IMG/VR virus record: IMGVR_UViG_2721755711_000001
From: a virus
Lineage: Duplodnaviria > Heunggongvirae > Uroviricota > Caudoviricetes
Reading direction: 5' to 3' (one strand)
Length of the DNA stretch: 46,733 bases
How positions within the stretch are numbered: position 1 is the stretch's first letter; each line of letters starts with the position of its first letter. A program made the position numbers and the translations under genes. Shown here one piece after another: positions 1,062 through 20,086 of this stretch. The notes under the pieces were generated by a model, which had not been told where the DNA came from, ran no database searches, and saw nothing but the letters and a program-made list of their open reading frames with translations.

Positions 1062-1637
1062 ATGAAAAAACTCGTTATAATTTCAGTAATGATATTATCT
1101 GTTATGAGTGGTTCAACACTGGCTGATAATCATACGCTATCGGCTGGTTATGCTCAGAGTAAGGTACAGGACTTTAAGAATATTAAAGGAGTGAATCTGC
1201 AATATCGATATGAGTGGGATTCTCCGGTCAGTGTTGTCGGGAGTTTTTCGTATATGAAAGGTGACTGGGCGGACAGTCATCGCGATGAAGCTGACGATTT
1301 TTACAGACAGCAGGCTGATATTAAATATTATTCATTTCTCGCAGGCCCGGCTTATCGTCTGAATGACTATATCAGTTTTTATGGTTTGGTGGGGATATCT
1401 CATACTAAAGCGAAGGGGGATTATGAGTGGAGAAACAGTGTGGGTGCTGATGAGTCTGATGGATATTTAAGTGAGTCTGTATCCAAAAAATCCACTGATT
1501 TTGCTTATGCAGCTGGTGTTATTATTAATCCGTGGGGCAATATGTCTGTAAATGTTGGGTATGAGGGAACTAAAGCAGATATATATGGAAAACATTCGGT
1601 CAATGGATTTACTGTTGGAGTTGGTTATCGTTTTTAA
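1062..1637 (+). CDS. Ail/Lom/PagC/OmpX-family outer-membrane beta-barrel protein
   Basis: Signal peptide MKKLVIISVMILSVMSGSTLA; alternating aromatic beta-strands; C-terminal GVGYRF typical of this family; GGAG-like RBS upstream. Confidence 0.8.
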   Translation: MKKLVIISVMILSVMSGSTLADNHTLSAGYAQSKVQDFKNIKGVNLQYRYEWDSPVSVVGSFSYMKGDWADSHRDEADDFYRQQADIKYYSFLAGPAYRLNDYISFYGLVGISHTKAKGDYEWRNSVGADESDGYLSESVSKKSTDFAYAAGVIINPWGNMSVNVGYEGTKADIYGKHSVNGFTVGVGYRF

Positions 1638-3115: not shown

Positions 3116-5149
3116 ATGCGTATAAAAATTTTATCCATAATGGTCAGTTTATCAGTTCTGTCCTTTGTGCCTTACTTATTAGCGAAAGAGTTATCTTACG
3201 GTCAGCAAAAAATTGTGTTGTCTGATTCTATTACTCCTGGTAATGATTTTTTCCAATATGTGAACCATGACTGGATCAATAAAGTAAAGATTCCAGCAGG
3301 TATGTCTCAAATTGATTCTATCGTGGATTTAGAGTTAGACACTGAAAAGAAAATTAAAACCATTATTGAAGAACTGGAGGCGGTACCCAAAAGTAGCCTG
3401 AGTAATAATCAGAAAAATATTCTGAATTTATATTTCAGTTATATGGATGAGGCCAGTATTGAAAAGGCCGGTTTAATGCCTGTGAAAACAGATTTAATAA
3501 AAATCATGCAAGCAAAAGATCATGAAGATATTAGCCGATTAATGACATTGCCCGGTTATACATCACTAATTGCTTATTGGGTTGGTTTGGATTCAAAATC
3601 ACCGGATACTTATGTTCTGTATCTTGGCCAGGGTGAACTCGGATTACCTGATCGTAATTACTATCTTGATAATACACCACAAATGAGAGAAACCCGTAAA
3701 AATTATATCAGTTATATTGAAACTATTCTGAAATTAACAGGTGAAAAAGACGTTAAAAAAAGATCACAACAGATCTTTGACTTTGAAAAATCTATTGCTG
3801 AAGTCCAGTGGAGCCTTGAAAATTGCCGGGATACCATCAGAAACTACCACCCAATGACTCTCGCGGAAATGAAAAGTTTTACCTCTGGCTTTTCGTGGAA
3901 TAGCTTTATTCAGTACTGGGGATTAACCGACCAACAATTGGCTAAAATAGTGATTGAAAATGATACTGCTGTAGAACAAACGGTACAAATATTCGTTAAA
4001 ACATCTGTTTCTGTTTTAAAAGATTTTCTGATATTTCATTACATCAATAGCCATGCTGTTTATTTGAATAATGCACTATCTGATGCTTATTTTGATTTTT
4101 ACCAGAAAAAACTGAATGGTGTTGAGAAGCAACGTACTCGTCAGGAGCGAGCACTTCAGATTGTCAATTCACTACAGGGTGAACCACTTGGGCAGATCTA
4201 TGTAGAAAAATATTTCTATCCACAATCAAAAGAGAAAATACAGAAATTAATTAGTTATATGTTCGCAGCTTTTAATACGCGTTTGAAAGATAATGACTGG
4301 ATGGATGAAGCTACACGCAAGGAAGCACAGAAGAAACTGGCACAGTTTACAGTTAAAGTCGGTTATCCAGATAAGTGGAATGATTTCAGTACGATCAATT
4401 TGAAACCTGACACATTGATGGATAACTTTAAGCAAGTGGAAGCGTGGACTTGTCGCAACCTCATGAGCAAAATAGGTCAGTCTGTTCGTAAATGGGAATG
4501 GAACATAACGCCACAGACCGTGAATGCCTACTTCGATCCTGTGTTAAATGAAATTGTGTTTCCTGCTGCGATATTACAGGCACCATTCTTCGAGCCTAAT
4601 GTTGATCCTGCATATAACTATGGTGCGATTGGCTCAGTCATTGGTCATGAAATGGGGCATGGTTTTGATGACCAGGGGAGCCTGTATGATGGAACTGGCC
4701 GGTTACGCAACTGGTGGAGTAACAATGCTAAAGAGCATTTTAAAGAAAAAACCGCCAAATTGGTGGAGCAATATAACAACTTTGAGGTCGATGGTCAGAA
4801 CTTAAATGGCGAGTTAACACTCGGTGAAAATATTGGTGATTTAGGTGGTTTAAATATCGCACTTAGTGCCTATAAACGATTCGCCAAAGATAATTACCCG
4901 AATGGTGAGCCCCCCGTTATTGATGGCATGACAGGCTTACAGCGTTTCTTTATTTCATGGGCCAGAACGTGGCAAGAGTTATCAAATAAGGAATCCGTGC
5001 GTAATCAGATCCTGACTGATGAACACTCGCCGAATCAGTTCCGCGCTAATGGGGTTGTTCGAAATATTGATGACTGGTATACAGCTTTTGGCGTGAGTAA
5101 GGGTAATGCTCTTTATCTTGAGCCAGAGAATCGGGTGATGATTTGGTGA
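3116..5149 (+). CDS. Secreted M13-family zinc metallopeptidase (neprilysin/PepO-like)
   Basis: 677 aa; N-terminal signal peptide; HEMGHGFD (HExxH) zinc motif and GENIGDLGG motif typical of M13; gene visibly AT-rich. Confidence 0.85.
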   Translation: MRIKILSIMVSLSVLSFVPYLLAKELSYGQQKIVLSDSITPGNDFFQYVNHDWINKVKIPAGMSQIDSIVDLELDTEKKIKTIIEELEAVPKSSLSNNQKNILNLYFSYMDEASIEKAGLMPVKTDLIKIMQAKDHEDISRLMTLPGYTSLIAYWVGLDSKSPDTYVLYLGQGELGLPDRNYYLDNTPQMRETRKNYISYIETILKLTGEKDVKKRSQQIFDFEKSIAEVQWSLENCRDTIRNYHPMTLAEMKSFTSGFSWNSFIQYWGLTDQQLAKIVIENDTAVEQTVQIFVKTSVSVLKDFLIFHYINSHAVYLNNALSDAYFDFYQKKLNGVEKQRTRQERALQIVNSLQGEPLGQIYVEKYFYPQSKEKIQKLISYMFAAFNTRLKDNDWMDEATRKEAQKKLAQFTVKVGYPDKWNDFSTINLKPDTLMDNFKQVEAWTCRNLMSKIGQSVRKWEWNITPQTVNAYFDPVLNEIVFPAAILQAPFFEPNVDPAYNYGAIGSVIGHEMGHGFDDQGSLYDGTGRLRNWWSNNAKEHFKEKTAKLVEQYNNFEVDGQNLNGELTLGENIGDLGGLNIALSAYKRFAKDNYPNGEPPVIDGMTGLQRFFISWARTWQELSNKESVRNQILTDEHSPNQFRANGVVRNIDDWYTAFGVSKGNALYLEPENRVMIW

Positions 5150-5374
5150 CTCGTCTGGTGACCGCTTTGACGGTCACTTTTAAGAAAAGGAATTTACAGG
5201 AGGGGCCCCTGTTAAGTTGTCAAGCATGTTTATGCCCGCTATGAGCTGAGGAATCTCCAGAAAACGAGACAGGCATAGCGCTATATGAACTACTGAATTT
5301 GTGCCAACAATTCAATGAGATCACTGCTATGTCTGTTCAAAAAGAGCCTGTATTCCGCTCTATTTGTTCACGGT

Positions 5375-5486
5375 AATACGCACGAACTGCCCGTCGACGG
5401 ACTTCGGGGGAAAAACGTGTATTTTTAGTCATCCTGTTTACCTCTTTTTCAGGGAGTTTAGTCTCCAGGATTTTCGGGGCGGTTCA
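5375..5486 (-). mobile_element. IS3-family (IS629/IS1203-like) left-end remnant: terminal repeat plus first ~20 codons of orfA, then truncated
   Basis: Minus strand reads TGAACCGCCCC...AGGTAAACAGGATGACTAAAAATACACGTTTTTCCCCCGAAGTCCGTC; encodes MTKNTRFSPEVR then diverges. Confidence 0.6.
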
Positions 5487-6241
5487 CTGGGCACCAGACC
5501 AACATAAGCCGCGAACTCTCGCCCTGATTTAAACACTGATGCTTTCCCCATGATGGCCAACGCTGCCGTTGCAATAAGTGGACCAACGCCAGGAATATCC
5601 AGCAACCGTCTACAGGTTTCATTCTGTCTCGCCACACTGGTAAGCTGTTTTTCTATATCATCTATCAGTGAGTCCAGTTCATTCAGCCTGTTGTACTGAT
5701 TTTCCAGCACTGTAATGAGATACAGTGGCAGTCTCTCTTTCATCCGCTCCAGTGCTTCAGGGAACTCCCGTTCCATCGCTGCCCGACCTTTGTGGATGGT
5801 TTCACCAAACTCCAGTAACGTCCCGTGCAGGGCATTAATTTGCGCGGTCCGGAACTTCACCAGTTGTCTGCGGGAACGGTGCAGAACCAGTATTGACTGT
5901 TGTTCTTCTGTTTTGACGGCGATTTCTTTACCTGGCTGCTGTACCGCCATCCAGATAGCTCGCGCATCCATCACGTCATTCTTATTGCCCATGACGAATG
6001 CTTTAACGAAGCGAGCCTGCAACAACCGGACTTTGTGTCCCTGCTTTGTTAATTCACGCGCCCAGTGCTGGGAGCCTCCACAAGCTTCCATGCCAATCAG
6101 GCAGGGTTCGCGGTTACTGAAATACGCCAGAAAATCCTGACGACGAACCTGCTTATCCACCACTTCCCCTGTGTGCTCATTGATGAAGTGAACCTGAATG
6201 ACATGTTTTGCGATATCAACGCCAACCGGTGTATATTTCAT
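5487..6241 (-). pseudogene. IS110-family transposase, 3'-truncated by the IS3-family insertion
   Basis: N-terminal DEDD-type domain and central IPGVGPLIATAALAIMG...AYVGLVP motif; reading frame runs into the IS3-family terminal repeat directly after GLVP, so the C-terminal catalytic region is missing. Confidence 0.75.
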
Positions 6242-6410
6242 TTGTGGAGTCTCCAGTCTGAGGGAGCTTTATGCATCCCGTATTGGGCACTATGATGCCG
6301 GAAATCTGCGAGGCTCCACACTTTTCCTGCCAACCCCGGCTTCATACTCAAATAGTTGGGATGCGTTCATTACATTCTCCCTTAGCCCGGCGGCCTGCCG
6401 GGCATATAAG

Positions 6411-7238
6411 TTATTTAATCTGGATAAATGGTGTATTGGCACCACTGGTCATGTATTGCGGCAGTGTACCGTTCCACTTGTTGATGGCTTCCAGCTCCAT
6501 GACGCCTGGGTTCTGGCGCAGAGCTTCGCCGCGTAAACGAATGGCATCGGCTTCTGCCTGGGCTTTTGTTCGAATGGCATCAGCCTGTCCGGCAGCTTCC
6601 GCACGTAGCATGTTGGCCTCCGCTTCACGTTGCTTGACTTCCTGTTCGCGCTGCAGGGTTTTCTGGTTTGCCGTGACTTTGGCGTTAATGCTGTCGATAA
6701 CGGTTGGAGGGTATTCCGGTTTACCTACATAAGAGAGGCTCATTACCTGAATGCCGATGGGTGTCATCTCTTCCTGAATGTCTTTAAGTGCGGCATCCAG
6801 TAGTTCAGACTTGCCGCCGTCGATAAATTTGTCAGTGGTCATTTTGCTGGCCAGCCGATTGAGTGCGTCGGCAATTTTCTGGCGCAGGTCAGTGTCGGTA
6901 ATGTCATCCACGCCTTTGCGGTAGGTCTGAAACACCGTGGTAACTTTGGATGGATCAACTTTGTAGGCCACACCGATGTGATAGCCGATGGTTGTACCGT
7001 CACTCATCTGGAAACTGAACGGTTCATCGTAGGTCTTCATTTGTTTGAAGGTGGGGAAGATATAAACTTCAGTATTCCAGCCAGTCCAGTAGCGACCAAC
7101 ACCGACCACCTCACCGACGCCTTTGTCGTCGCCCAGTTTATTTACCTTGATGCCAACATTACCTGGTTCAACGCGATCGCAACCGACAAGGCCAATTGTC
7201 GGCAGAACAATGGCTAAAGCAAAAATAATTTTTTTCAT
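6411..7238 (-). CDS. SPFH/band-7 (prohibitin/stomatin-like) lipoprotein with coiled-coil C-terminus
   Basis: Lipobox LVGC after signal peptide; SPFH-like core; Ala/Glu/Gln-rich C-terminal coiled coil. Confidence 0.75.
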   Translation of the reverse strand: MKKIIFALAIVLPTIGLVGCDRVEPGNVGIKVNKLGDDKGVGEVVGVGRYWTGWNTEVYIFPTFKQMKTYDEPFSFQMSDGTTIGYHIGVAYKVDPSKVTTVFQTYRKGVDDITDTDLRQKIADALNRLASKMTTDKFIDGGKSELLDAALKDIQEEMTPIGIQVMSLSYVGKPEYPPTVIDSINAKVTANQKTLQREQEVKQREAEANMLRAEAAGQADAIRTKAQAEADAIRLRGEALRQNPGVMELEAINKWNGTLPQYMTSGANTPFIQIK

Positions 7239-7423
7239 CTTTTATCCTTAGTGAAAGAAAGACCCTTGTAAATGGCATAAATGCAGGGCGGGGTCAGAAA
7301 CGCCAGTGCAAAGCCGGAAATGACTGCTACCGTATCCTTCATGGATATAAGGAACGGGACGAGTAGTCCGTAAATGCATGCGATAATTGCCAGTAAAATT
7401 ACTATTCTGAAATACAATCTCAT
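7235..7423 (-). CDS. Small two-helix membrane protein, overlaps SPFH gene start by 4 bp
   Basis: 62 aa, two hydrophobic segments; stop overlaps downstream start (ATGA). Confidence 0.45.
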   Translation of the reverse strand: MRLYFRIVILLAIIACIYGLLVPFLISMKDTVAVISGFALAFLTPPCIYAIYKGLSFTKDKR

Positions 7424-7600
7424 TGGTTTGTTGCATCCCGATATTTTTAACTGACTGACAGCGCAATAAAGAGAATAATGATTTCTGTTAGTGTCAGTAC
7501 TGTGGCAAGGATTAAAAACAGTTTTACTCTGCTTAATTCACGGTTGCTTTTCATATAAACGGTTAGTAAAAAAACGGAAGAATTATATTCTTCTTAATAT

Positions 7601-8182
7601 TTAATGTGTCACTGGCGCTTCTGGCATACCATGAGTATTCAGATCGTGAATCATTTCATCCAGAAGGAGTTCAAGCCCTTCGCGCCCCATAGCAGAGACA
7701 ATGAAACCATTATCAGGATCTGCGATGAGCATTTTTTGATAGAGAAACAGAACTCGCCCCATGCCTTCAGCTTCACCATATTTTTCAATAAATCCCCATT
7801 CGACATGGTTTTGCAGGGCAATGCGAAGTGGTCCTGGGTATATACTCATGCAACCATGCTTCCCCTTATAAATAACTGCGCGATCTGTAGTTCCGTTATC
7901 GTTAGGGATATCAATGGTACCGTTCTTGTTTTCCTCTTCACTGATAAACGTTGCCACATACAGCCAGCGCCATTGAGCAACCTTCATATCGACTGAAAAT
8001 CTTCCCAGGAATCCGGCATCATCGGCTTCAGCAATACATTGCATGATTCTTAAGCCGTGCCAGTATGGATTGTCGTATTCACCATCATTAAGCCGCTGTA
8101 CGGCCTCAACATAATCAATGGTTGTATTGCCAATTTTTATGCCATGTGGCGTAACTTCTGGTCGGAACTCTGAATGATTCAT
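7601..8182 (-). CDS. Hypothetical protein, unknown function
   Basis: ORF 7601..8239; preferred start is the ATG of MNHSEF at 8182, preceded by GGAG; no recognisable motif. Confidence 0.5.
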   Translation of the reverse strand: MNHSEFRPEVTPHGIKIGNTTIDYVEAVQRLNDGEYDNPYWHGLRIMQCIAEADDAGFLGRFSVDMKVAQWRWLYVATFISEEENKNGTIDIPNDNGTTDRAVIYKGKHGCMSIYPGPLRIALQNHVEWGFIEKYGEAEGMGRVLFLYQKMLIADPDNGFIVSAMGREGLELLLDEMIHDLNTHGMPEAPVTH

Positions 8183-8566
8183 AATGTTTGCTCCTTTGCT
8201 GGTGGAATAATCGTGTAGCCAGCTCTTTTTGCCATCCACAGAAATGTATCCATGCAGCCAACGAATTCATTATCCAACAGATGTTTTGAGTAAATTACTT
8301 CACCATTTTCAATGGTTAGCAACACTCTTACTTTTTATGTGTTATGTTCTGTTGTTTTTCTTTCATTTATTTATCTCCCATATGCTTTGCGCAAATACAG
8401 GTTGGCTATATGAAGATAAGAATCTCCATGTTGTGCAATGAGGCAGGCAGTTTTATACGATGCCTTATTTTTCAGGAAAGTCATAACATAATCTCCTGCG
8501 AATAAAGGTTGCAACAATCCCCGGCGATAAAACCGTAATATATTATTCGAAGATGACTTGTTTTAT

Positions 8567-8932
8567 TTAACTGGATAGTTCTTTTTCAGCTGCTGCTTCA
8601 GCATAGCAACGTGCAAATTCAAGAACTTCATCACCTGTTCTTTTTATTGCGTCATTGTCTGACATTTGTAATACGACAACTGCGCATAATAAATCATGGA
8701 TATTGTTTGCAAAGGAATCCGGTGCCAGACAGAGACCCTCATAATTATTTCGTTGTAAGTTAGCTTCCGTCATTGGCTCCGAAGTGCCGGTGAGCCGGTT
8801 TTTGACAATCACGCGGTCTCGAATCACTATATCGGCAACATCTATTGCTTTTATAACCCCCGGGAGAAATTCCTGGTTTGTATAATCAAACTCATCAACA
8901 CAGAGAACGGTTATGTTTTCGAACTTTTTCAT
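8567..8932 (-). CDS. Hypothetical protein, second gene of a coupled two-gene operon downstream of cI
   Basis: ATG at 8932 overlaps the stop of the upstream gene (ATGA); track start 8938 is an alternative TTG; no recognised domain. Confidence 0.5.
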   Translation of the reverse strand: MKKFENITVLCVDEFDYTNQEFLPGVIKAIDVADIVIRDRVIVKNRLTGTSEPMTEANLQRNNYEGLCLAPDSFANNIHDLLCAVVVLQMSDNDAIKRTGDEVLEFARCYAEAAAEKELSS

Positions 8933-9390
8933 GCGCAAGTATCTCCAGCTGTTGGTTTACCGGTTAACAGCCACATCGGATCGCACCCAAGAACATTTGC
9001 CAGCGGGATAAGCATACTGATGGTTGGTTCATACTTTCCGCTTTCCCACTGGATGATGATTTCTTCATCGAGATCGAGCAGCCTGGCGAGTTCGGCGGTT
9101 GTTAAGCCGCAGGATTCGCGTTGGGTGCGAAGGTTAACCAGCCAGCTTTTAGGGAAGGATTGTTTTTGTTGTGCAGGAGAAGCCGCAGATAGAGCATATT
9201 CATGGATAAATTCCATTACCTCAATGCCCAGTTCCTTTGAGCGAGCACAATCCAGAAGATGGAATGTGCGTACAGCACTTAGCAAATTTGCAATATTTAA
9301 TGCAAAGGAATCAAGTTCTAAGCCCTTAAGCGTAACACAGCCGCAGTTGATAAAATTAGTTGTTTCTGGAGTTGCGTTTAGTGTCTTCAT
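8929..9390 (-). CDS. Two-domain protein: unknown N-terminal domain plus C-terminal XRE/Cro-type helix-turn-helix
   Basis: C-terminal LTTAELARLLDLDEEIIIQWESGKYEPTISMLIPLANVLGCDPMWLLTG is a classic XRE-type HTH. Confidence 0.6.
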   Translation of the reverse strand: MKTLNATPETTNFINCGCVTLKGLELDSFALNIANLLSAVRTFHLLDCARSKELGIEVMEFIHEYALSAASPAQQKQSFPKSWLVNLRTQRESCGLTTAELARLLDLDEEIIIQWESGKYEPTISMLIPLANVLGCDPMWLLTGKPTAGDTCA

Positions 9391-9437
9391 ATATCCACCA
9401 ACAATTTTAAATTGAACTAAATCAAGTTATAATTGAT

Positions 9438-9472
9438 GGTGCGATATTATGCTTTGAGAAATAGGCTGTCAA
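9438..9472 (-). promoter_or_regulatory. Sigma70-type promoter for the 9390->8567 operon
   Basis: Minus strand reads TTGACA - 17 bp - TAATAT, upstream of the 9390 start and downstream of the cI terminator. Confidence 0.45.
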
Positions 9473-9502
9473 GAAAAAATTGACATCGTGTGTTTTAGGC
9501 AG

Positions 9503-9528
9503 AAAAAAACGGGCAAAGCCCGTTAAAA
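9503..9528 (-). terminator. Intrinsic terminator after cI
   Basis: Minus strand AACGGGCTTTGCCCGTTTTTTT just 3' of the cI stop codon. Confidence 0.55.
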
Positions 9529-9535
9529 TCAAAGA

Positions 9536-10225
9536 CTAACCAAATCTGTTTATATTGAATGGTACTGATGAGATCACTTTAGACTGGATATAAAGCAGAG
9601 CTAACCCCTCTTTTTCGATGCTCCATGGTTGATAATTGGGGTTATCAGATAACACCATGATTTTGCTTCCAATTTTTTGAAGTCTTTTCACGTAGCATTC
9701 TCCATCAAAACAAAATGCATAAATGCCATCGCCATCAAAATAAGTTACTGTCTTATCAAGAAAAAGAAGGTCGCCAGGTGAGATTGTGGGAGCCATACTG
9801 TCTCCTCTGGCGTTGCCTATTTCTATATTTTTAAATGCTCGGTTTCCAACAAGACGACGGGCATATTCAGGATCAAGTTCTATTGAGCGTACTACATCTA
9901 TAAAGTCTCCGCGGACATGGGTCCCATTACCGCAACTAAATTCAACGTCAAGTACATTAAACACGACGCTATCTGTTCTTGCCTGATGTTTCTCTTGCGA
10001 AGAGAAGGTTGGTGAGGTGTCTTCACCTAAGAACCAGGATTGTGGATAACCGCTAATCTCTGATAACTGCGCAAGCTTATCGCTCCGTGGAAATGTTTTT
10101 CCTGTGGTCCAGTACTGCACTGATTGCGCACTCACCCCCAGCTTACGGGCCAGCTGAGCCTGAGTCCATCCTTTTGCTTTCAGCATTGCGGCTATTCTAT
10201 TTTCTGTGTTTTTGACGTTCTTCAT
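9536..10225 (-). CDS. cI: Phage CI-type repressor (N-terminal HTH, C-terminal S24 LexA-like peptidase)
   Basis: N-terminal HTH (GWTQAQLARKLGVSAQSVQYW); C-terminal GDSMAPTISPGDLLFLDK S24 motif; divergent from cro-like gene. Confidence 0.85.
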   Translation of the reverse strand: MKNVKNTENRIAAMLKAKGWTQAQLARKLGVSAQSVQYWTTGKTFPRSDKLAQLSEISGYPQSWFLGEDTSPTFSSQEKHQARTDSVVFNVLDVEFSCGNGTHVRGDFIDVVRSIELDPEYARRLVGNRAFKNIEIGNARGDSMAPTISPGDLLFLDKTVTYFDGDGIYAFCFDGECYVKRLQKIGSKIMVLSDNPNYQPWSIEKEGLALLYIQSKVISSVPFNINRFG

Positions 10226-10358
10226 GACCAGGTCCCGTGGGTTTCTTTACAAGGGTAAATCTTTACTTGATTTTAGTGTATTCGATCCTTTTGCAACTTG
10301 CATGTTAATTTAAACTTGATGTATTCTTGATTCATTAAGTTTATCTTGGTGATTTGTT
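10226..10358. promoter_or_regulatory. cI-cro divergent intergenic region (operator/promoter region)
   Basis: AT-rich, with repeated CTTTAC/ACTTGA motifs and inverted repeat TAAACTT...AAGTTTA between the divergent genes. Confidence 0.45.
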
Positions 10359-10631
10359 ATGAAAGGAAATGATTACGACGAACTTCGTGCATTAATTGCG
10401 CAAAATGCCATAGCGCGAAATCTTGGTGTGACACCGCAAGCGGTGAATCAGTGGTTTTCAAAAAGCACAATTCCTGCTCGTTTCGTTTTACGGGTATGTG
10501 AGGTGGTTGCATGGAAGGTTACGCCTCATGGCTTAAGGCCAGATCTTTACCCTCACCCTGAAGATGGAATTCCTGATTCGTTACGCAAAACATCAAATCC
10601 AAGCTTAGCGCACACGGGGGAGGGGAGGTAA
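10359..10631 (+). CDS. Cro-like DNA-binding protein (YdaS/DUF1019-type HTH)
   Basis: LGVTPQAVNQW HTH core; divergent from cI. Confidence 0.7.
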   Translation: MKGNDYDELRALIAQNAIARNLGVTPQAVNQWFSKSTIPARFVLRVCEVVAWKVTPHGLRPDLYPHPEDGIPDSLRKTSNPSLAHTGEGR

Positions 10632-10752
10632 GGAAGTATGAACGAAGAACGAATCGAATGCATTCTTGAGGCCATATCAGCCCTTACCGACGAAGAGATT
10701 CAGGAGGCAAGGACTGTTGCTGAAAAAACAGCCTTAGCTTTGGGTTTTTCGG

Positions 10753-10980
10753 TTAATCCTGGTTGATGGAGTTATCCAGAACGGCAGCGATGTATTCACA
10801 CATATCCTGTCCTCGCTCCCTCTGCTGTTGCGGCTGACTTTTCAGGTTTTTAATTAACTCCATTCCGGATGCTGCGAGCTTTATTCGCTCTTGGATGGGA
10901 AGGGACGACAGCAATAAACCAAGTAATGCCTCAAGGCCGTCTAGCTTGGTTTCAACGCTGAATTTAGTTGTATCAGTCAT
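10753..10980 (-). CDS. Hypothetical protein
   Basis: ORF only. Confidence 0.3.
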   Translation of the reverse strand: MTDTTKFSVETKLDGLEALLGLLLSSLPIQERIKLAASGMELIKNLKSQPQQQRERGQDMCEYIAAVLDNSINQD

Positions 10981-11068
10981 AGGTAATTTCCTTACTGGTT
11001 GTGTGAGAACTCCAGTATACCACCGAGCCTGAAGTGGTTAAAAGACAGGCAAATTGAAGAGGCTAACC

Positions 11069-11389
11069 ATGACTCCAGAAGAATTTATCTGCAAACACAT
11101 AACGGAAAAGCTGGTGGCGGAGGGCTTCCCTGAAATTGTTGCCAGGGGGGGGCATGCCGGGGACTGGATTACTACCGCCGTAGCTCGCAGGCCAGCCGCA
11201 AAGGAGCGATGTTTAATGATTGCTTGTTTCGTGCGCGGCAATGGGCACTTGGTCAGACAAATGTTACTGAGCGAAAGGAAAAGAAAAAGCCGGGCCGGAT
11301 TAAGGTGGGCCAGCCCGGCCTGTCCTGACTTACCTTTGGAATCAACCTTCAAGGAGCTGTTCCATGATAAACGCCCGATTAATCACTGA
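11069..11389 (+). CDS. Hypothetical protein (weak)
   Basis: ATG at 11069 preceded by GAAGAGG; sequence includes a GC-rich hairpin, so coding status is uncertain. Confidence 0.25.
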   Translation: MTPEEFICKHITEKLVAEGFPEIVARGGHAGDWITTAVARRPAAKERCLMIACFVRGNGHLVRQMLLSERKRKSRAGLRWASPACPDLPLESTFKELFHDKRPINH

Positions 11390-11464
11390 TCCTGACCGCC
11401 AACCGGAGGGCATTAATCACCAGACTGGAAAAGGCCTCAATCATCTGACTAAAGGACATTGATC

Positions 11465-11776
11465 ATGCTTAACATTAGCAGCACTCAAAAATTAGTCAAC
11501 CCTTCAGATCCTGTTGGACAAATTCCGGTCGAACAGTGGTACAGAAGAACGTACGTGGTTTCAGAGTACGCCCGCACTTATACCGAGACAATTATCGGAA
11601 AGGCCAAATGCCCCTGTTCCGCAGCTGTGAATGGTGCGATGGCAATACGTAACGCCAATCCTTCGGTTTTATCCATCCGTTTTATAAGTATTGAGCAGCT
11701 TTCTCCTGAAGAAGGAGAGGCCAGCGAGCGCGCCCTTGACGCCTGGTTTGAGAAACATCCTGAGGAGATTGAATGA
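11465..11776 (+). CDS. Hypothetical phage protein
   Basis: ATG at 11465 with AAAGGA RBS; stop overlaps next gene start. Confidence 0.4.
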   Translation: MLNISSTQKLVNPSDPVGQIPVEQWYRRTYVVSEYARTYTETIIGKAKCPCSAAVNGAMAIRNANPSVLSIRFISIEQLSPEEGEASERALDAWFEKHPEEIE

Positions 11777-12483
11777 TGAACACCGCAATTTTTAACGACA
11801 AAGTATCCATGACCAGCGTTGAAATCGCAGAGCTGGTTGGAAGTCAACACGGCAATGTCAGAATATCAATAGAGCGTCTGGCAAAACGCGGGGTGATTCA
11901 ACTTCCTGCAATGCAAAAAGTTGAGAACGAACAATCATTTAGCCAAAACAAATTCACAAACGCATATATTTTCGAAGGCGAACAAGGCAAACGCGACAGC
12001 ATCATTGTCGTCGCACAACTTTGCCCGGAATTCACTGCCCGCCTGGTAGATCGTTGGCGCGAACTGGAAGAGCAGGTGCGCAAATCAATGAGCGAAATCG
12101 AAATGGTTGCCGCGATGGCTCTTGAAGCAGTTCGTCAGCAAAAACGCCTCGACAAGATGGAAGAAAAAGTTAGCCACGTTGCCGAAACTGTCGAACAAAT
12201 CAAAAGAGGCACCATACGCGATGGTTATGCAGGATACCGTCAGCTGGTGGCGAAAACAGGTATGTCAGATGCGAAATGCCGCAATCTGGTGAACGCATAT
12301 CAGATCCCTACCGACACCCATGAATTTATGACGCCGGACGGATTATTGTCTCGTCGCGCGATTGTTGCAGTAGAACCCTTCATGTTTGCTTTTCATCGCA
12401 TGATGAGTGAAGCAGAACCACGAGGTACTCGCTGGTATCACCCGAAAATGGGCCTGTTTCAGGCGCTGGGCTGGCAGGTGTAA
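11773..12483 (+). CDS. Phage antirepressor/regulatory protein (AntA/KilA-N-like N-terminal domain)
   Basis: N-terminal SVEIAELVGSQHGNVRISIERL resembles the AntA/Rha DNA-binding region. Confidence 0.5.
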   Translation: MMNTAIFNDKVSMTSVEIAELVGSQHGNVRISIERLAKRGVIQLPAMQKVENEQSFSQNKFTNAYIFEGEQGKRDSIIVVAQLCPEFTARLVDRWRELEEQVRKSMSEIEMVAAMALEAVRQQKRLDKMEEKVSHVAETVEQIKRGTIRDGYAGYRQLVAKTGMSDAKCRNLVNAYQIPTDTHEFMTPDGLLSRRAIVAVEPFMFAFHRMMSEAEPRGTRWYHPKMGLFQALGWQV

Positions 12484-12697
12484 TTATGCTCACAGGTAAC
12501 ACATGCAAGTACTCAATCGCTGGTTCCGCGATGGCAGAGGGCGTCGCGTCCACGTTATACGCTGGGAGTCTGAAACACAGCGGGTCATTTACCTGCGTGA
12601 TGGTTATTCGCATGAATGCTTCAGTCCGTTGTGGTTGTTTCGTCGTGATTTTGTGGAGTGTGAAGCGCCGCCAGAGTGACGGCGTAATGGTGGAAAC

Positions 12698-13006
12698 TTA
12701 CACGAAGCGGATCTGGAGTTTTTTTCCTGTTGCGCGGGCAAATTTTTTCAGTGTGGAAAATGATGGTCCACTGACACCTGACGCCAGATTACTTTCCATT
12801 CTGCTGATGACAGTTGCTTTGGTTCCCATACGCTCAGCGATCTCAGCCTGGGTTAAACCAGCTTCTTTACGTGCTGCCAGCATTTCATCAAGCAACGCAA
12901 ATTCGTCGGCGATGGCGTCGTATTCTGCTTTAAAAGCTGGATCCTCCATCCATTTATCAGCCATTTCATCATGTGTAATGGTTGGCGGATTACGTTTACC
13001 AGTCAT
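12698..13006 (-). CDS. higA: HigA-type antitoxin (XRE HTH)
   Basis: AGLTQAEIAERMGTKATVISRMES HTH; overlaps upstream toxin gene; toxin-first order typical of higBA. Confidence 0.8.
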   Translation of the reverse strand: MTGKRNPPTITHDEMADKWMEDPAFKAEYDAIADEFALLDEMLAARKEAGLTQAEIAERMGTKATVISRMESNLASGVSGPSFSTLKKFARATGKKLQIRFV

Positions 13007-13325
13007 GCTTTACCTCCTTCATTCTGGTTTCAGCTTTTTGGCGTTCGGCTGGTGGGGTTTTCTGGGTCTTCTTGATGAAACTATGCAGCATGATGATGCG
13101 TTTTCCTGCCAGGGTGCAGTAAAAGACGCGTGCGATGCCATCACTACCTTTAATCCGAAGCTCGAAAAGCCCGTTACCGAAAGCACTGGTATGAGGTTCT
13201 CCGAGATTGCTGCCGTATATCTTCATGCGTTCAACAAGATGCTGGTATCGGGCACGCATACTCAATGGAAGCTGGTCGACCTCCAGCCTGACCTCTTCAC
13301 TGTAGTATTCGATAGTGTAGTTCAT
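12996..13325 (-). CDS. higB: HigB/RelE-family toxin (Gp49-like killer protein)
   Basis: 109 aa; RelE/ParE-superfamily-like sequence; immediately upstream of and overlapping the XRE antitoxin. Confidence 0.75.
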   Translation of the reverse strand: MNYTIEYYSEEVRLEVDQLPLSMRARYQHLVERMKIYGSNLGEPHTSAFGNGLFELRIKGSDGIARVFYCTLAGKRIIMLHSFIKKTQKTPPAERQKAETRMKEVKHDW

Positions 13326-13439
13326 GAGTTAAAACATAACAAAATGGTTATGTTTGTACAATGTGTTGATTCCTCAATTCCGGTGTATTTTTCTGCTCAG
13401 CAAAATTATGCAAAGATGAGGGCTGCTATCGATGAAAAA
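13326..13439 (-). promoter_or_regulatory. higBA promoter/operator region with palindrome
   Basis: AACATAAC-N7-GTTATGTT inverted repeat directly upstream of higB. Confidence 0.4.
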
Positions 13440-13802
13440 TTAGCTAATCAGTTCTTTTATCCTATTTTTGATAGATTTCTCCTCATTTTTGAATCTTTTT
13501 TTGAGTTCATTAAGTTCATTATCAAGCTCAAGGTATTTTGCCTGAATACCTCGTTCTGCAATCAGATTTGTGGCATTAATGGCTTCTTGATAATCAACGT
13601 CATCTTTGTCAATGAGCTTTCCATATTTTCCAGTGATTATTGCTGCTCTATGCTTGCATATATTTCCGAAGTCAGCAGCGATACACGAACAATCTATTTT
13701 CAGTTTACCTTTGTAATCTTTGACGGTCACTTGGTGGTACGTGATCCCGTCACTACTTTTGACGAAAATTTCATAAATCATACTGAAATTTGTCCTTTTC
13801 AC
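13440..13802 (-). CDS. SWIM-type zinc-finger protein with coiled-coil tail; AT-rich moron
   Basis: CSCIAADFGNICKH fits SWIM CxCx(n)CxH; Lys/Glu-rich C-terminus; markedly AT-rich compared with flanking phage genes. Confidence 0.5.
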   Translation of the reverse strand: MKRTNFSMIYEIFVKSSDGITYHQVTVKDYKGKLKIDCSCIAADFGNICKHRAAIITGKYGKLIDKDDVDYQEAINATNLIAERGIQAKYLELDNELNELKKRFKNEEKSIKNRIKELIS

Positions 13803-14117
13803 AGTGCGTTAGGATTGTGCCCTCATCTTAAGGATATTATTGATCATGCAGATTTTCTGGGCTATGCTAAAAAAGCCCCTTATAAAACGGGGGCCGGGAT
13901 TGGAACCCCAGAATTGCATACGGCGATATTTGACGCGCCAGCGTCTTTTTTATCGTCCACGTTCACGCACGCCAGAATTATGGTGGGCTGGGCAGGGGAG
14001 CCGAAAGGCTCGCCGGTTTCCGTATGCGCCGGTAGTTCCAACCCTGTTCAGTCCGCCACCAGCGAGCTTGGAACCTCCGGTGGTGGAAGTTATCCATTGC
14101 ATACGGAGGCTGCCATC

Positions 14118-14681
14118 ATGGCTACGATCCCAACCCTCACTCAACCTGAAATTGCCATCGTTGATGGTCAGGTTGTTACATCTTCTTTGGCTGTTGCTGA
14201 CTTCTTCTCTAAACGTCATGACGATGTTCTGAAAAAGATCCGCATTTTGGATTGTTCTCCAGAGTTTTGTGCCCGCAATTTTGCGGAGACATCAATTTTG
14301 GTACACCAGCCCAACGGCGGTACTCGCAAACTTCCTTGCTACCACATCACCCGCGACGGCTTCGCGTTCCTGGCAATGGGCTTCACGGGCAAACGTGCAG
14401 CCAGGTTCAAAGAGGCATACATCAACGCCTTTAACCTGATGGAGAAGAGTTTATCAGGTGCCGATGCGTCTGATATGTCAGCTGTCGCACGAAACGCCAG
14501 AGGCGTATACCTGCATTTGCGTGAAATCCATCAAATCTGGACAAGCCAGCTTTATCCAATGCTTAAGGCCGTTGAATCTCCGCTGGCTAGCAAACTGTAC
14601 GACCGTGTTGGTGATGCTGTTTTTGGGGCCGCACTTGTTGACTCCAGACTTAATGGTTCTGACAAGGAGGCGCACCCATGA
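14118..14681 (+). CDS. Phage regulatory protein Rha-family
   Basis: ATG at 14118 with GGAGG RBS; Rha-like features (SSLAVADFFSKRHDDVLKKIR, YHITRDGFAFLAMGFTG); real gene is the 3' part of a spurious 731-aa ORF. Confidence 0.65.
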   Translation: MATIPTLTQPEIAIVDGQVVTSSLAVADFFSKRHDDVLKKIRILDCSPEFCARNFAETSILVHQPNGGTRKLPCYHITRDGFAFLAMGFTGKRAARFKEAYINAFNLMEKSLSGADASDMSAVARNARGVYLHLREIHQIWTSQLYPMLKAVESPLASKLYDRVGDAVFGAALVDSRLNGSDKEAHP

Positions 14682-18979: not shown

Positions 18980-20086
18980 TTAGAACTGGTATACCATACC
19001 TACAGCAACGATATCGTCAGTGTTTACACCAAGAGCTTTAGTAAAGTCATTTTTGTCAAGCAGGTTGATTTTGTAATCAACGAATGTAGACATATTTTTG
19101 TTGAAATAATAAGTTGCGCCAACATCAACATATTTGACTAAATCTTGGTCACCAAAAATGCCAAGATCTTTACCTTTTGATTGCAGATAAGCAACAGACG
19201 GACGCAGACCGAAATCGAACTGATATTGTGCAACAGCTTCGAAGTTTTGTGCTTTATTAGCCACAAAGTAATCTGCGAATTTAGTCATATTCTGGGTTTC
19301 TGAATAGGTTGTTGCCAGATAAACGTTGTTTGCGTCGTATTTCAGACCTGCAGCCCAGACTTCTGCATTTTCGCCGGAAGCAAATACTCCTGGGAGAAGT
19401 TTACCCAATTTGACTTGAGTGTCGGTACGATCAGATTTCGCATACGTTGCACCAATGCCGAAACCTTCGTATTCATAGGTCGCAGAGAAACCAAAACCAT
19501 CGCCATTGCCTTTGGTGTAGTTATCTAAGCTACTACGATCATGATTATTCTTACCCTGGTACTGTGCAGCAAAATTCAGACCATCAACCAGACCAAAGAA
19601 GTCGTTGTTACGATAAGTTGCAACACCAGTGGTGCGACCAGTCATGAATACATCTGTTTGGGTCCAGGTATCTCCACCGAATTCTGGCAGAACGTCAGTC
19701 CATGCACCGATATCGTATGCTACACCGTAGTTACGACCGTAATCGACGGAGCCGTAGTCACCGAATTTAAGCCCTGCAAATGCAAGACGGGTTTTATCTT
19801 TGGCTGCTCCCTGTTCTTCAGTACGGTTTCCTTTGAATTCATATTCCCACTGACCGAAACCAGTCAGTTGATCGTTGATCTGAGTTTCGCCTTTGAAACC
19901 CAGACGAGCATAAGTTGTGTCGCCATCATTTGCATCGTTAGAGGAGAAGTAGTGCTTAGCATTAACTTTTCCGTACAGATCCAACTTGTTGCTGTCTTTA
20001 TTATAAATCTCTGCTGCCTGAGCAGACATCGCCATCAGTACTGATGCAGCCACAGCAGAAATTGCCACCGTTAATTTTTTCATCAC
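18980..20086 (-). CDS. General porin, OmpC/OmpF/NmpC family (prophage-borne)
   Basis: Signal peptide ending AQA; conserved porin motifs ([23 protein letters not shown]) and C-terminal MVYQF. Confidence 0.85.

Follow-up and report, generated by a model that had tools for sequence, protein, structure and literature searches.

A lipoprotein and hairpin gene pair at the interrupted early-left end of a phiP27-like prophage, with a possible role as a phage membrane cage

What do three intact genes at the left edge of a prophage do, and do they belong together? The question is raised by a 46,733-nt stretch of Caudoviricetes DNA (IMG/VR record IMGVR_UViG_2721755711_000001), which is called the window here and to which all positions refer unless another record is named. 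Its minus strand carries three open reading frames (ORFs), confirmed in this analysis, for proteins of 275, 62, and 193 amino acids (aa). A preliminary description made from the sequence saw in them an SPFH lipoprotein, a small membrane partner, and a third gene without recognized relatives, forming an accessory patch between insertion sequence (IS) debris and a prophage. The observation itself was confirmed, and the interpretation was partly supported. The best explanation, with a probability of about one half, is that the first two genes are a phage membrane module at the cut end of a phiP27-like early-left operon that cages the inner membrane, and that the 193-aa gene is a separate gene.

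The 275-aa protein is an SPFH lipoprotein with a long helical tail. Pfam Band_7 (PF01145) matches residues 22-208 with 108.3 bits against a cut-off of 23.6 (E=6e-31), and PHROG 200, annotated as 'lipoprotein', matches with E=1e-114. The N-terminus, MKKIIFALAIVLPTIGLVGC-D, comprises a signal peptide and the lipobox L-V-G-C, which fits the pattern [LVI][ASTVI][GAS]C; the lipobox cysteine is Cys20 and is followed by Asp21. Cys20 and a C-terminal motif, KW[ND]G.LP..PF, are invariant across nine divergent phage homologues, and in the window the tail reads KWNGxLP...PF. The AlphaFold2 (AF2) model has a mean predicted local distance difference test score (pLDDT) of 76 and contains strands at residues 19-94, then helices, then a single helix of 65 residues (178-242). 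This helix is the coiled-coil tail that the preliminary description had proposed. Residues 245-275 fall below a pLDDT of 50 in the monomer, though the family's best-conserved motif is located there.

Structure comparison connects the protein with SPFH proteins that build cages. In Foldseek the full-length chain matches prohibitin, HflK, HflC, erlin, stomatin, flotillin, and QmcA (E=1e-13 to 1e-7), led by prohibitin, HflK/C, and erlin at about E=1e-13. These proteins all form membrane rings or cages, and those of HflK/C, prohibitin, stomatin, and flotillin are understood as fences around patches of membrane. The predicted model combines the SPFH fold with a long helix, an arrangement shared with the cage-forming members. 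A profile built from the phage homologues matches prohibitin, QmcA, and HflK/C in PDB; with only the window protein as query, HflK and prohibitin-2 are nearest among solved sequences. An orthologue of HflK or HflC was considered and rejected, with scores of 23.4 against 159.4 bits for hflK (TIGR01933) and 25.5 against 134.4 bits for hflC (TIGR01932). The residue after the lipobox cysteine (+2) is a nearly invariant Asp among 20 enterobacterial homologues. Asp at +2 is the classical Lol-avoidance signal of E. coli, so the mature enterobacterial protein is predicted to stay in the inner membrane and to face the periplasm.

The 62-aa protein is a dedicated partner that belongs to a family of its own. 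Its stop codon and the SPFH start share the sequence ATGA, and AAGGA lies 8-9 nt 5' of the SPFH start, in agreement with the translational coupling and the two-helix membrane protein first described. Two hydrophobic segments are joined by a 5-residue loop (SMKDT) and flanked at both ends by basic residues, and the protein is predicted to be a hairpin with both termini in the cytoplasm (N-in/C-in). It matches PHROG 1130 'membrane protein' with E=8e-24 and has no Pfam match. SPFH genes often stand in operons with NfeD-type genes, and the preliminary description had remarked that this partner was of another type and unusually small. NfeD is absent from seven partner homologues even at E=10, and 62 aa is too short to hold an NfeD domain. 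With a profile built from the seven partners, 123 protein clusters were collected. Among the 120 listed, one mislabelled fragment has a name and the others have none, and a precomputed Pfam domain is absent throughout. Partners from different phages have the loop motif P-x-[LM]-[IVF]-S-x-[KRD]-[DS]-[TSY] in common. The partner is small as stated; it is not a reduced NfeD but a separate family that co-occurs with phage SPFH lipoproteins.

The two-transmembrane (two-TM) gene and the SPFH gene form a conserved module of Proteobacterial phages and lie in early-gene regions. A tblastn search with the SPFH protein found homologues in 741 phage records. The hosts include Escherichia, Klebsiella, Erwinia, Pseudomonas, Burkholderia, Caulobacter, Staphylococcus, and Enterococcus, and homologues also occur in haloarchaeal viruses. 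Those of Proteobacterial phages are lipoproteins with the invariant Cys and have a two-TM ORF directly 5', usually with a 4-nt overlap with the SPFH gene. The alignment of divergent SPFH proteins returned relatives with at least 92% identity only, and the diversity described here comes from individual phage records and three clade-specific scans. In the P2-like phage P88 the pair lies in the early operon between cox and a replication gene, and in the lambdoid phages Fraca and ST340-VIM1phi10.1 (ST340) it lies between the repressor and int. The N4-like Pylasvirus KpCHEMY26 has the pair beside RNA-polymerase subunit genes, and in both KpCHEMY26 and Seunavirus GAP31 the module is found amid RNA-polymerase and DNA-metabolism genes. 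The two-TM ORF adjoins or overlaps the SPFH start in Pseudomonas phage Ostro and Burkholderia phage phiE125 (gp44/gp43), while in GAP31 the partner is one small gene further upstream.

A scripted count over the fetched loci gave the same picture: grouped at 80% identity, 12 of 15 clusters have a two-TM ORF whose end falls within a few bases of the SPFH start. The three exceptions include GAP31 and KpCHEMY26, whose partner is present by record annotation. Stenotrophomonas phage Pokken has a 70-aa two-TM ORF that is unannotated (about 1280-1490 (+) of locus L010), ends 8 nt inside the SPFH gene, and has a partner-type loop, LPYLFSARSY. It seems that annotation regularly misses the partner gene, and the 62-aa gene is uncalled in phiP27. 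In one protein cluster, P0062 (347 aa, from a 94-kb contig, with eight member sequences), a P88-type two-TM partner is fused in frame to the SPFH lipoprotein, the partner stop at the ATGA overlap having been lost. The fusion could mean that both proteins work jointly, perhaps in physical contact, and it could equally be a frameshift or sequencing error at the ATGA. Overlap with the genes before it leaves the pair no room for a promoter of its own in Fraca and ST340. The pair occurs in temperate and in strictly virulent phages; it is thus not peculiar to prophages, and a role confined to lysogens would probably explain it only in part. The genes themselves are in databases already (phiP27 L05/L06, PHROG); the locus shows that in Proteobacterial phages the SPFH lipoprotein has a dedicated, co-translated partner other than NfeD.

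In the window the pair belongs to the leftward early operon of an ordinary phiP27-like lambdoid prophage that has been interrupted by an IS. From about position 6365 rightwards the sequence has 94.7% DNA identity to L05-L07 of phiP27, about 90% to a series of Shiga toxin 2 (Stx2)-converting phages, and about 92% to prophages in E. coli chromosomes. The protein encoded by phiP27 L05 is 98.9% identical to the SPFH protein. The intact Stx2e prophage of STEC276 has, in leftward order, a cI-type repressor, a helix-turn-helix (HTH) gene, small ORFs, the 193-aa gene, the 62-aa gene, and the SPFH gene, followed by DUF5406, DUF4222, xis, int, and then the chromosomal DUF72-domain gene beside yecN. The gene order of phiP27 is identical to this leftward order, and Fraca and ST340 agree with a lambdoid early-left placement. 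In the window all genes from 9390 down to 6411 are on one strand and follow the repressor and its terminator-like and promoter-like sites. This order, the run of genes on one strand, and the intact relatives place the three genes in the distal part of the leftward early operon. They are therefore within the prophage's own operon and not in a patch between IS debris and the prophage.

The operon ends at an IS110 junction. Homology to the prophage breaks off within the first few bases of the DUF5406 gene, beside an 894-bp IS110 fragment that is 100% identical to IS110-family copies elsewhere in E. coli. Its transposase ORF is truncated and has a partial Transposase_20 domain, and RefSeq annotates the element as belonging to an RNA-guided transposase family. 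The preliminary description had mentioned nested IS remnants; one truncated copy was found, and nesting is not clear. The IS110 event took away the DUF5406-xis-int end together with attL, so that the intact genes of the left arm now end with the SPFH gene. An Rfam scan of 5000-11500 found nothing at E<=0.1, and no Rfam family was detected in the non-coding end of the IS110 element.

The proteins and their distribution also point to a phage origin. The SPFH, 62-aa, and 193-aa proteins all belong to PHROG phage families (200, 1130, and 1515). Of 5426 complete E. coli genomes, 387 contain DNA of the pair and 158 the 193-aa gene; the position of the pair varies, and 27 of its occurrences are on plasmids. 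This patchy occurrence rules out core housekeeping genes, and the earlier view that the genes are accessory was correct.

The proposed mechanism starts from the predicted anchoring of the SPFH protein. The protein would be exported and lipidated and, in enterobacteria, kept in the inner membrane. Its 65-residue helix and conserved C-terminal tail would then drive assembly into a cup on the periplasmic face of that membrane, an assembly modelled on HflK/C, QmcA, and prohibitin. The cup would enclose a patch of membrane, with the hairpin partner inside the patch or nucleating the cup. The conserved 5-residue periplasmic loop of the partner is the likely contact, as it would be the only part able to touch the SPFH domain. 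The module would be made early in lytic development, here from the early-left promoter after derepression, and it may condition the infected cell's inner membrane to withstand a second insult. The leading candidate for this insult is genome entry by a superinfecting phage. Conditioning of the inner membrane, chiefly for superinfection exclusion, ranks first as a best guess at the role and is held weakly. Early timing, envelope location, virulent as well as temperate carriers, and patchy accessory spread fit such a role, which the preliminary description had called plausible but unproven, and that grading stands. The broader idea of a widespread phage cage on the inner membrane that blocks the entry of competing genomes, or shields against abortive-infection effectors of the host, is tentative and on balance doubtful.

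Several points weigh against this explanation. The +2 residue is Ser in Pseudomonas and Stenotrophomonas, Glu in GAP31, and Gly in Ccr5, which restricts the inner-membrane prediction to enterobacteria. Oligomerization of the SPFH protein and its contact with the partner are putative, and the structure prediction covered the monomer. The exclusion role is suggested only by analogy with early membrane proteins and lipoproteins that act in exclusion. PADLOC-DB 2.0 gave no match at E<=0.1 for the SPFH, 62-, 193-, 123-, and 48-aa proteins and matched only the generic HTH of the 153-aa protein, so the locus is not assignable to a known defense system. Repressor control of the early-left promoter is putative: a candidate repressor-operator motif shared by the putative PL and PR regions, WAACTTGAT, has three matches where 1.3 are expected, which is not significant. 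Literature searches on phage SPFH proteins turned up annotations and speculation and no tested function. Finally, outer-membrane vesicles from uninduced cultures of Pasteurella multocida contained a prophage SPFH protein (PMC9872710); if homologous, it would argue for expression in the lysogen and perhaps for another location.

Should the cage hold up, it would give viral SPFH proteins their first assigned function and would be the first SPFH cage with a client that is neither NfeD nor a protease. The two genes make up a system of about 1 kb, which is a clonable handle on viral SPFH function, whether in exclusion, FtsH control, or lysis timing. There are also consequences for annotation. The 'serine protease' label carried by SPFH genes of this kind has no support here and is baseless, the 62-aa gene is often uncalled, and the module is part of a prophage early operon and not a defense island.

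Mimicry of HflK/C is the best of the other explanations, although it is unlikely. The phage cage would surround host FtsH or compete for it in the periplasm and so alter the turnover of FtsH substrates, among them CII/CIII/Xis-type phage proteins, membrane proteins, LpxC, and sigma-32. HflK and prohibitin-2 are the closest relatives in sequence and structure, the family profile adds prohibitin, QmcA, and HflC, and the predicted topology, with periplasmic bulk and an inner-membrane anchor, is that of HflK/C. However, the N-terminal TM helix of HflK/C is missing from the phage protein, and the NCBIfam matches to hflC and hflK are weak, far under the equivalog cut-offs given above. Lambda keeps its FtsH inhibitor cIII in the early-left operon, and the lambdoid module occupies the operon position of cIII. 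Yet virulent phages, which make no lysogeny decision, carry the module as well, no FtsH-related gene is linked to it, and the dedicated hairpin partner points to a separate client. The same mimicry was proposed in the CSP3 genome paper for the SPFH gene of that phage (PMC10269572).

Control of lysis or of membrane integrity is improbable. The hairpin would act as a holin-like or antiholin-like peptide that is sequestered or timed by the SPFH cage, or, more generally, the cage may stabilize the energized membrane until lysis. The partner resembles class II holins in being small, with two TM segments, an N-in/C-in topology, and a charged C-terminus. Size and topology fit, but gene location does not: the pair of Proteobacterial phages is found in early regions and not in lysis cassettes. 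The sole match to a holin family, Phage_holin_10 in one of the seven partners, is insignificant (E=0.058). SPFH cages that enclose channels are known, for example from a stomatin-aquaporin structural entry. Between its endolysin gene and tgl, Kayvirus carries the SPFH gene mbpS and a holin-like gene, mbpV (PMC7150955), but MbpV has one TM segment and is not homologous to the hairpin partner.

A surface or virulence factor of lysogenic conversion is very unlikely. The lipoprotein, on the surface or in vesicles, would act on an animal host, for example as a Toll-like receptor (TLR) 1/2 agonist. The window's relatives are Shiga-toxin prophages, and a parallel, if it is homologous to the phage SPFH family, may exist in PM0222, an HflK/C-like prophage protein of P. 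multocida that was found in whole cells and vesicles and whose deletion attenuated virulence in mice (PMC9872710). However, stimulation of TLR2 is generic to lipoproteins. The pair is moreover kept in virulent environmental phages and in phages of non-pathogens, and it has no dedicated promoter in Fraca or ST340.

The 193-aa gene is independent of the SPFH and 62-aa pair. It had been given as a 194-aa gene following the pair; the gene is there, but 194 counts the stop codon, and in the direction of transcription it lies upstream of the pair. Its protein matches PHROG 1515 with E=2e-93. The family has 60 clusters in a word-indexed search and 132 representative clusters in an exhaustive hidden Markov model (HMM) search. 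The named members are from Enterobacterales, as are nine genome loci, which include Rahnella, Yersinia, Citrobacter, Phytobacter, Raoultella, and Providencia. None of the nine has an SPFH or partner gene within 5 kb of the 193-aa homologue. Conversely, the 193-aa gene is present in 46 and absent from 34 of 80 close SPFH loci, and Stx1a phages have a copy with 77% identity and no SPFH gene. In 9 of the 11 loci compared (seven of the nine genome loci, the window, and STEC276) the same strand has a cI-like gene 2.5-3.5 kb upstream, which shows that the 193-aa gene recurs in lambdoid early-left operons. Conservation of its neighborhood, which the preliminary description had offered as a check, thus follows these operons and not the pair. 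It is extremely unlikely that the SPFH, 62-aa, and 193-aa genes are one bacterial accessory module between IS debris and the prophage: they are adjacent on one strand beside an IS fragment, and the 193-aa gene accompanies the pair in more than half of the close loci, but all three are in phage families, their order is identical inside the phiP27 genome and intact phiP27-type prophages, and each part occurs without the other in the 34 SPFH loci, the nine distant loci, and the Stx1a phages just described.

The fold of the 193-aa protein may be new. The domain and structure searches that supported the SPFH fold left this protein without a recognized relative: its predicted model is confident, with no significant structural or profile match to any known fold. 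A PF17345 tag precomputed for two homologues was rejected, as hmmscan did not reproduce it. The model suggests a separate cytoplasmic protein of the early operon with a fold not seen before, which makes it a candidate for structural work. From context alone one might guess at a host-takeover or anti-defense factor. Relatives of a 236-aa Rha-domain protein encoded elsewhere in the window are found directly 3' of the 193-aa homologue in three Enterobacterales loci (L226, L229, and L230), and in another (L232) such a relative lies just upstream of it.

Table 1. Features of the locus and other genes of the window, with positions in the 46,733-nt stretch.
Feature	Position	Strand	Evidence and remarks
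SPFH/Band-7 lipoprotein gene	6411-7238	-	275 aa; ORF, Pfam, PHROG, AF2 model
Two-TM hairpin partner gene	7235-7423	-	62 aa; ORF, PHROG, ATGA overlap with SPFH gene
Candidate single-TM ORF	7447-7554	-	35 aa; between 193-aa and 62-aa genes; unannotated in relatives
Terminator-like weak AT-rich hairpin with U7	7569-7593	-	Just 3' of 193-aa gene
193-aa gene, predicted cytoplasmic protein	7601-8182	-	ORF from ATG
48-aa ORF	8179-8325	-	ORF; PHROG 340, E=1e-19; stop overlaps 193-aa start (ATGA)
123-aa protein gene	8567-8938	-	PHROG 5451; among first genes of leftward operon
153-aa HTH protein gene	8929-9390	-	HTH_3, E=1.5e-11; PHROG 4836 'CII-like regulator'
Sigma-70-like promoter, TTGACA-17-TAATAT	9444-9472	-	Consensus scan, 10/12 matches; candidate PL-type early-left promoter
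Terminator-like hairpin with T-run	9508-9524	-	Consensus scan; directly 3' of cI-like gene
cI-type repressor gene (HTH + Peptidase_S24)	9536-10225	-	Pfam
Truncated IS110-family element	5487-6380	-	Occupies place of prophage DUF5406/xis/int end
GC-rich hairpin	6385-6403	-	7 bp, about -16 kcal/mol, without U tract
Ail/Lom-family outer-membrane protein gene	1062-1637	+	Left flank
M13-family metallopeptidase gene	3116-5149	+	677 aa, PepO-like
Rha-domain protein gene	11773-12483	+	236 aa
Ash and Rha domain protein gene	12486-14681	+	731 aa
Gram-negative porin gene	18980-20086	-	Full length; Porin_1, E=8e-152

The layout of the locus leaves some room for separate expression of the pair (Table 1). 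The spacer 5' of the pair is 177 nt long in the window and holds a weak U7 hairpin and a 35-aa ORF, so that some independent expression of the pair is possible. This hairpin folds at -4.9 kcal/mol (z = -1.96) and is below detection in the consensus terminator scan. The 35-aa ORF, MKSNRELSRVKLFLILATVLTLTEIIILFIALSVS, has one TM segment and is full length and intact in 42 related IMG/VR loci, with 16 alleles. Its distribution follows the 193-aa gene and not the SPFH gene. A general companion of the 193-aa gene was nevertheless rejected, because there is no equivalent downstream of distant 193-aa homologues. The 193-aa gene is joined to the 48-aa ORF by the same type of overlap that joins the pair, and the 48-aa ORF was found in 65 of 80 related loci. 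An alternative GTG start at 8239 would give a 193-aa gene product of 212 aa, but the homologues begin at the ATG. The GC-rich hairpin is directly after the SPFH stop and is kept in the STEC276 prophage. The 123-aa and 153-aa HTH proteins have a domain in common, with reciprocal matches to PHROG 4587 and 5451; it is N-terminal in the HTH protein and C-terminal in the 123-aa protein. Their genes adjoin and overlap, and they look like partial paralogues.

The rest of the window contains other accessory genes. The porin gene is in the right arm of the prophage, on the strand opposite to its neighbors, and resembles a classic lysogenic-conversion porin. The gene for the 731-aa protein is preceded by that of the 236-aa Rha-domain protein. 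The M13 metallopeptidase gene is in a block of 35-40% GC directly left of the IS110 fragment, and matches to E. coli genomes leave out the greater part of this block. The Ail/Lom region of the left flank is annotated with a 3'-5' exonuclease gene and a TssE-like gene of type VI secretion in the matching E. coli genomes, and it may be a remnant of another mobile element.

Comparison with known systems shows which features set the phage module apart. The L05 ('lipoprotein / putative serine protease') and L06 genes of phiP27 are essentially the same genes, of the same sequence class. The early superinfection-exclusion proteins T4 Imm/Sp, T5 Llp, TP-J34 Ltp, and HK97 gp15 are small membrane proteins or lipoproteins encoded by early or lysogeny-proximal genes. 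Like them, the module would act in the envelope and is accessory and patchy in distribution; the likeness is one of function only and by analogy, and none of them is known to be an SPFH protein. MbpV-MbpS of Kayvirus (Staphylococcus phage K/812) is similar in having an SPFH protein with a small membrane protein encoded directly upstream (PMC7150955). In contrast to the window protein, MbpS is TM-anchored and not a lipoprotein, identity is about 25%, and the genes are beside the lysis genes; MbpV, with its single TM segment and charged tail, is unrelated to the 62-aa partner.

The closest systems are cellular. HflK/HflC of E. coli has the SPFH domain, the long wall helix, the periplasmic bulk, and the inner-membrane anchoring that are found or predicted here. 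Unlike HflK/HflC, to which it is about 17% identical, the phage protein is predicted to be lipid-anchored instead of held by an N-terminal TM helix, a single SPFH gene takes the place of the K/C pair, and the predicted companion is the 62-aa hairpin and not FtsH. QmcA faces the cytoplasm, whereas a periplasmic orientation is predicted for the phage SPFH protein. QmcA-YbbJ and other SPFH-NfeD operons (PDB 8z5g) are like the phage module in having adjacent, co-transcribed genes for an SPFH scaffold and a small membrane protein, but the phage partner is a two-TM hairpin only, without the NfeD/OB-fold, and belongs to its own family without a Pfam model. Overall it appears that the lipid anchor, the non-NfeD hairpin, and the viral origin distinguish the phage module from its closest relatives, QmcA-YbbJ and HflK/C-FtsH.

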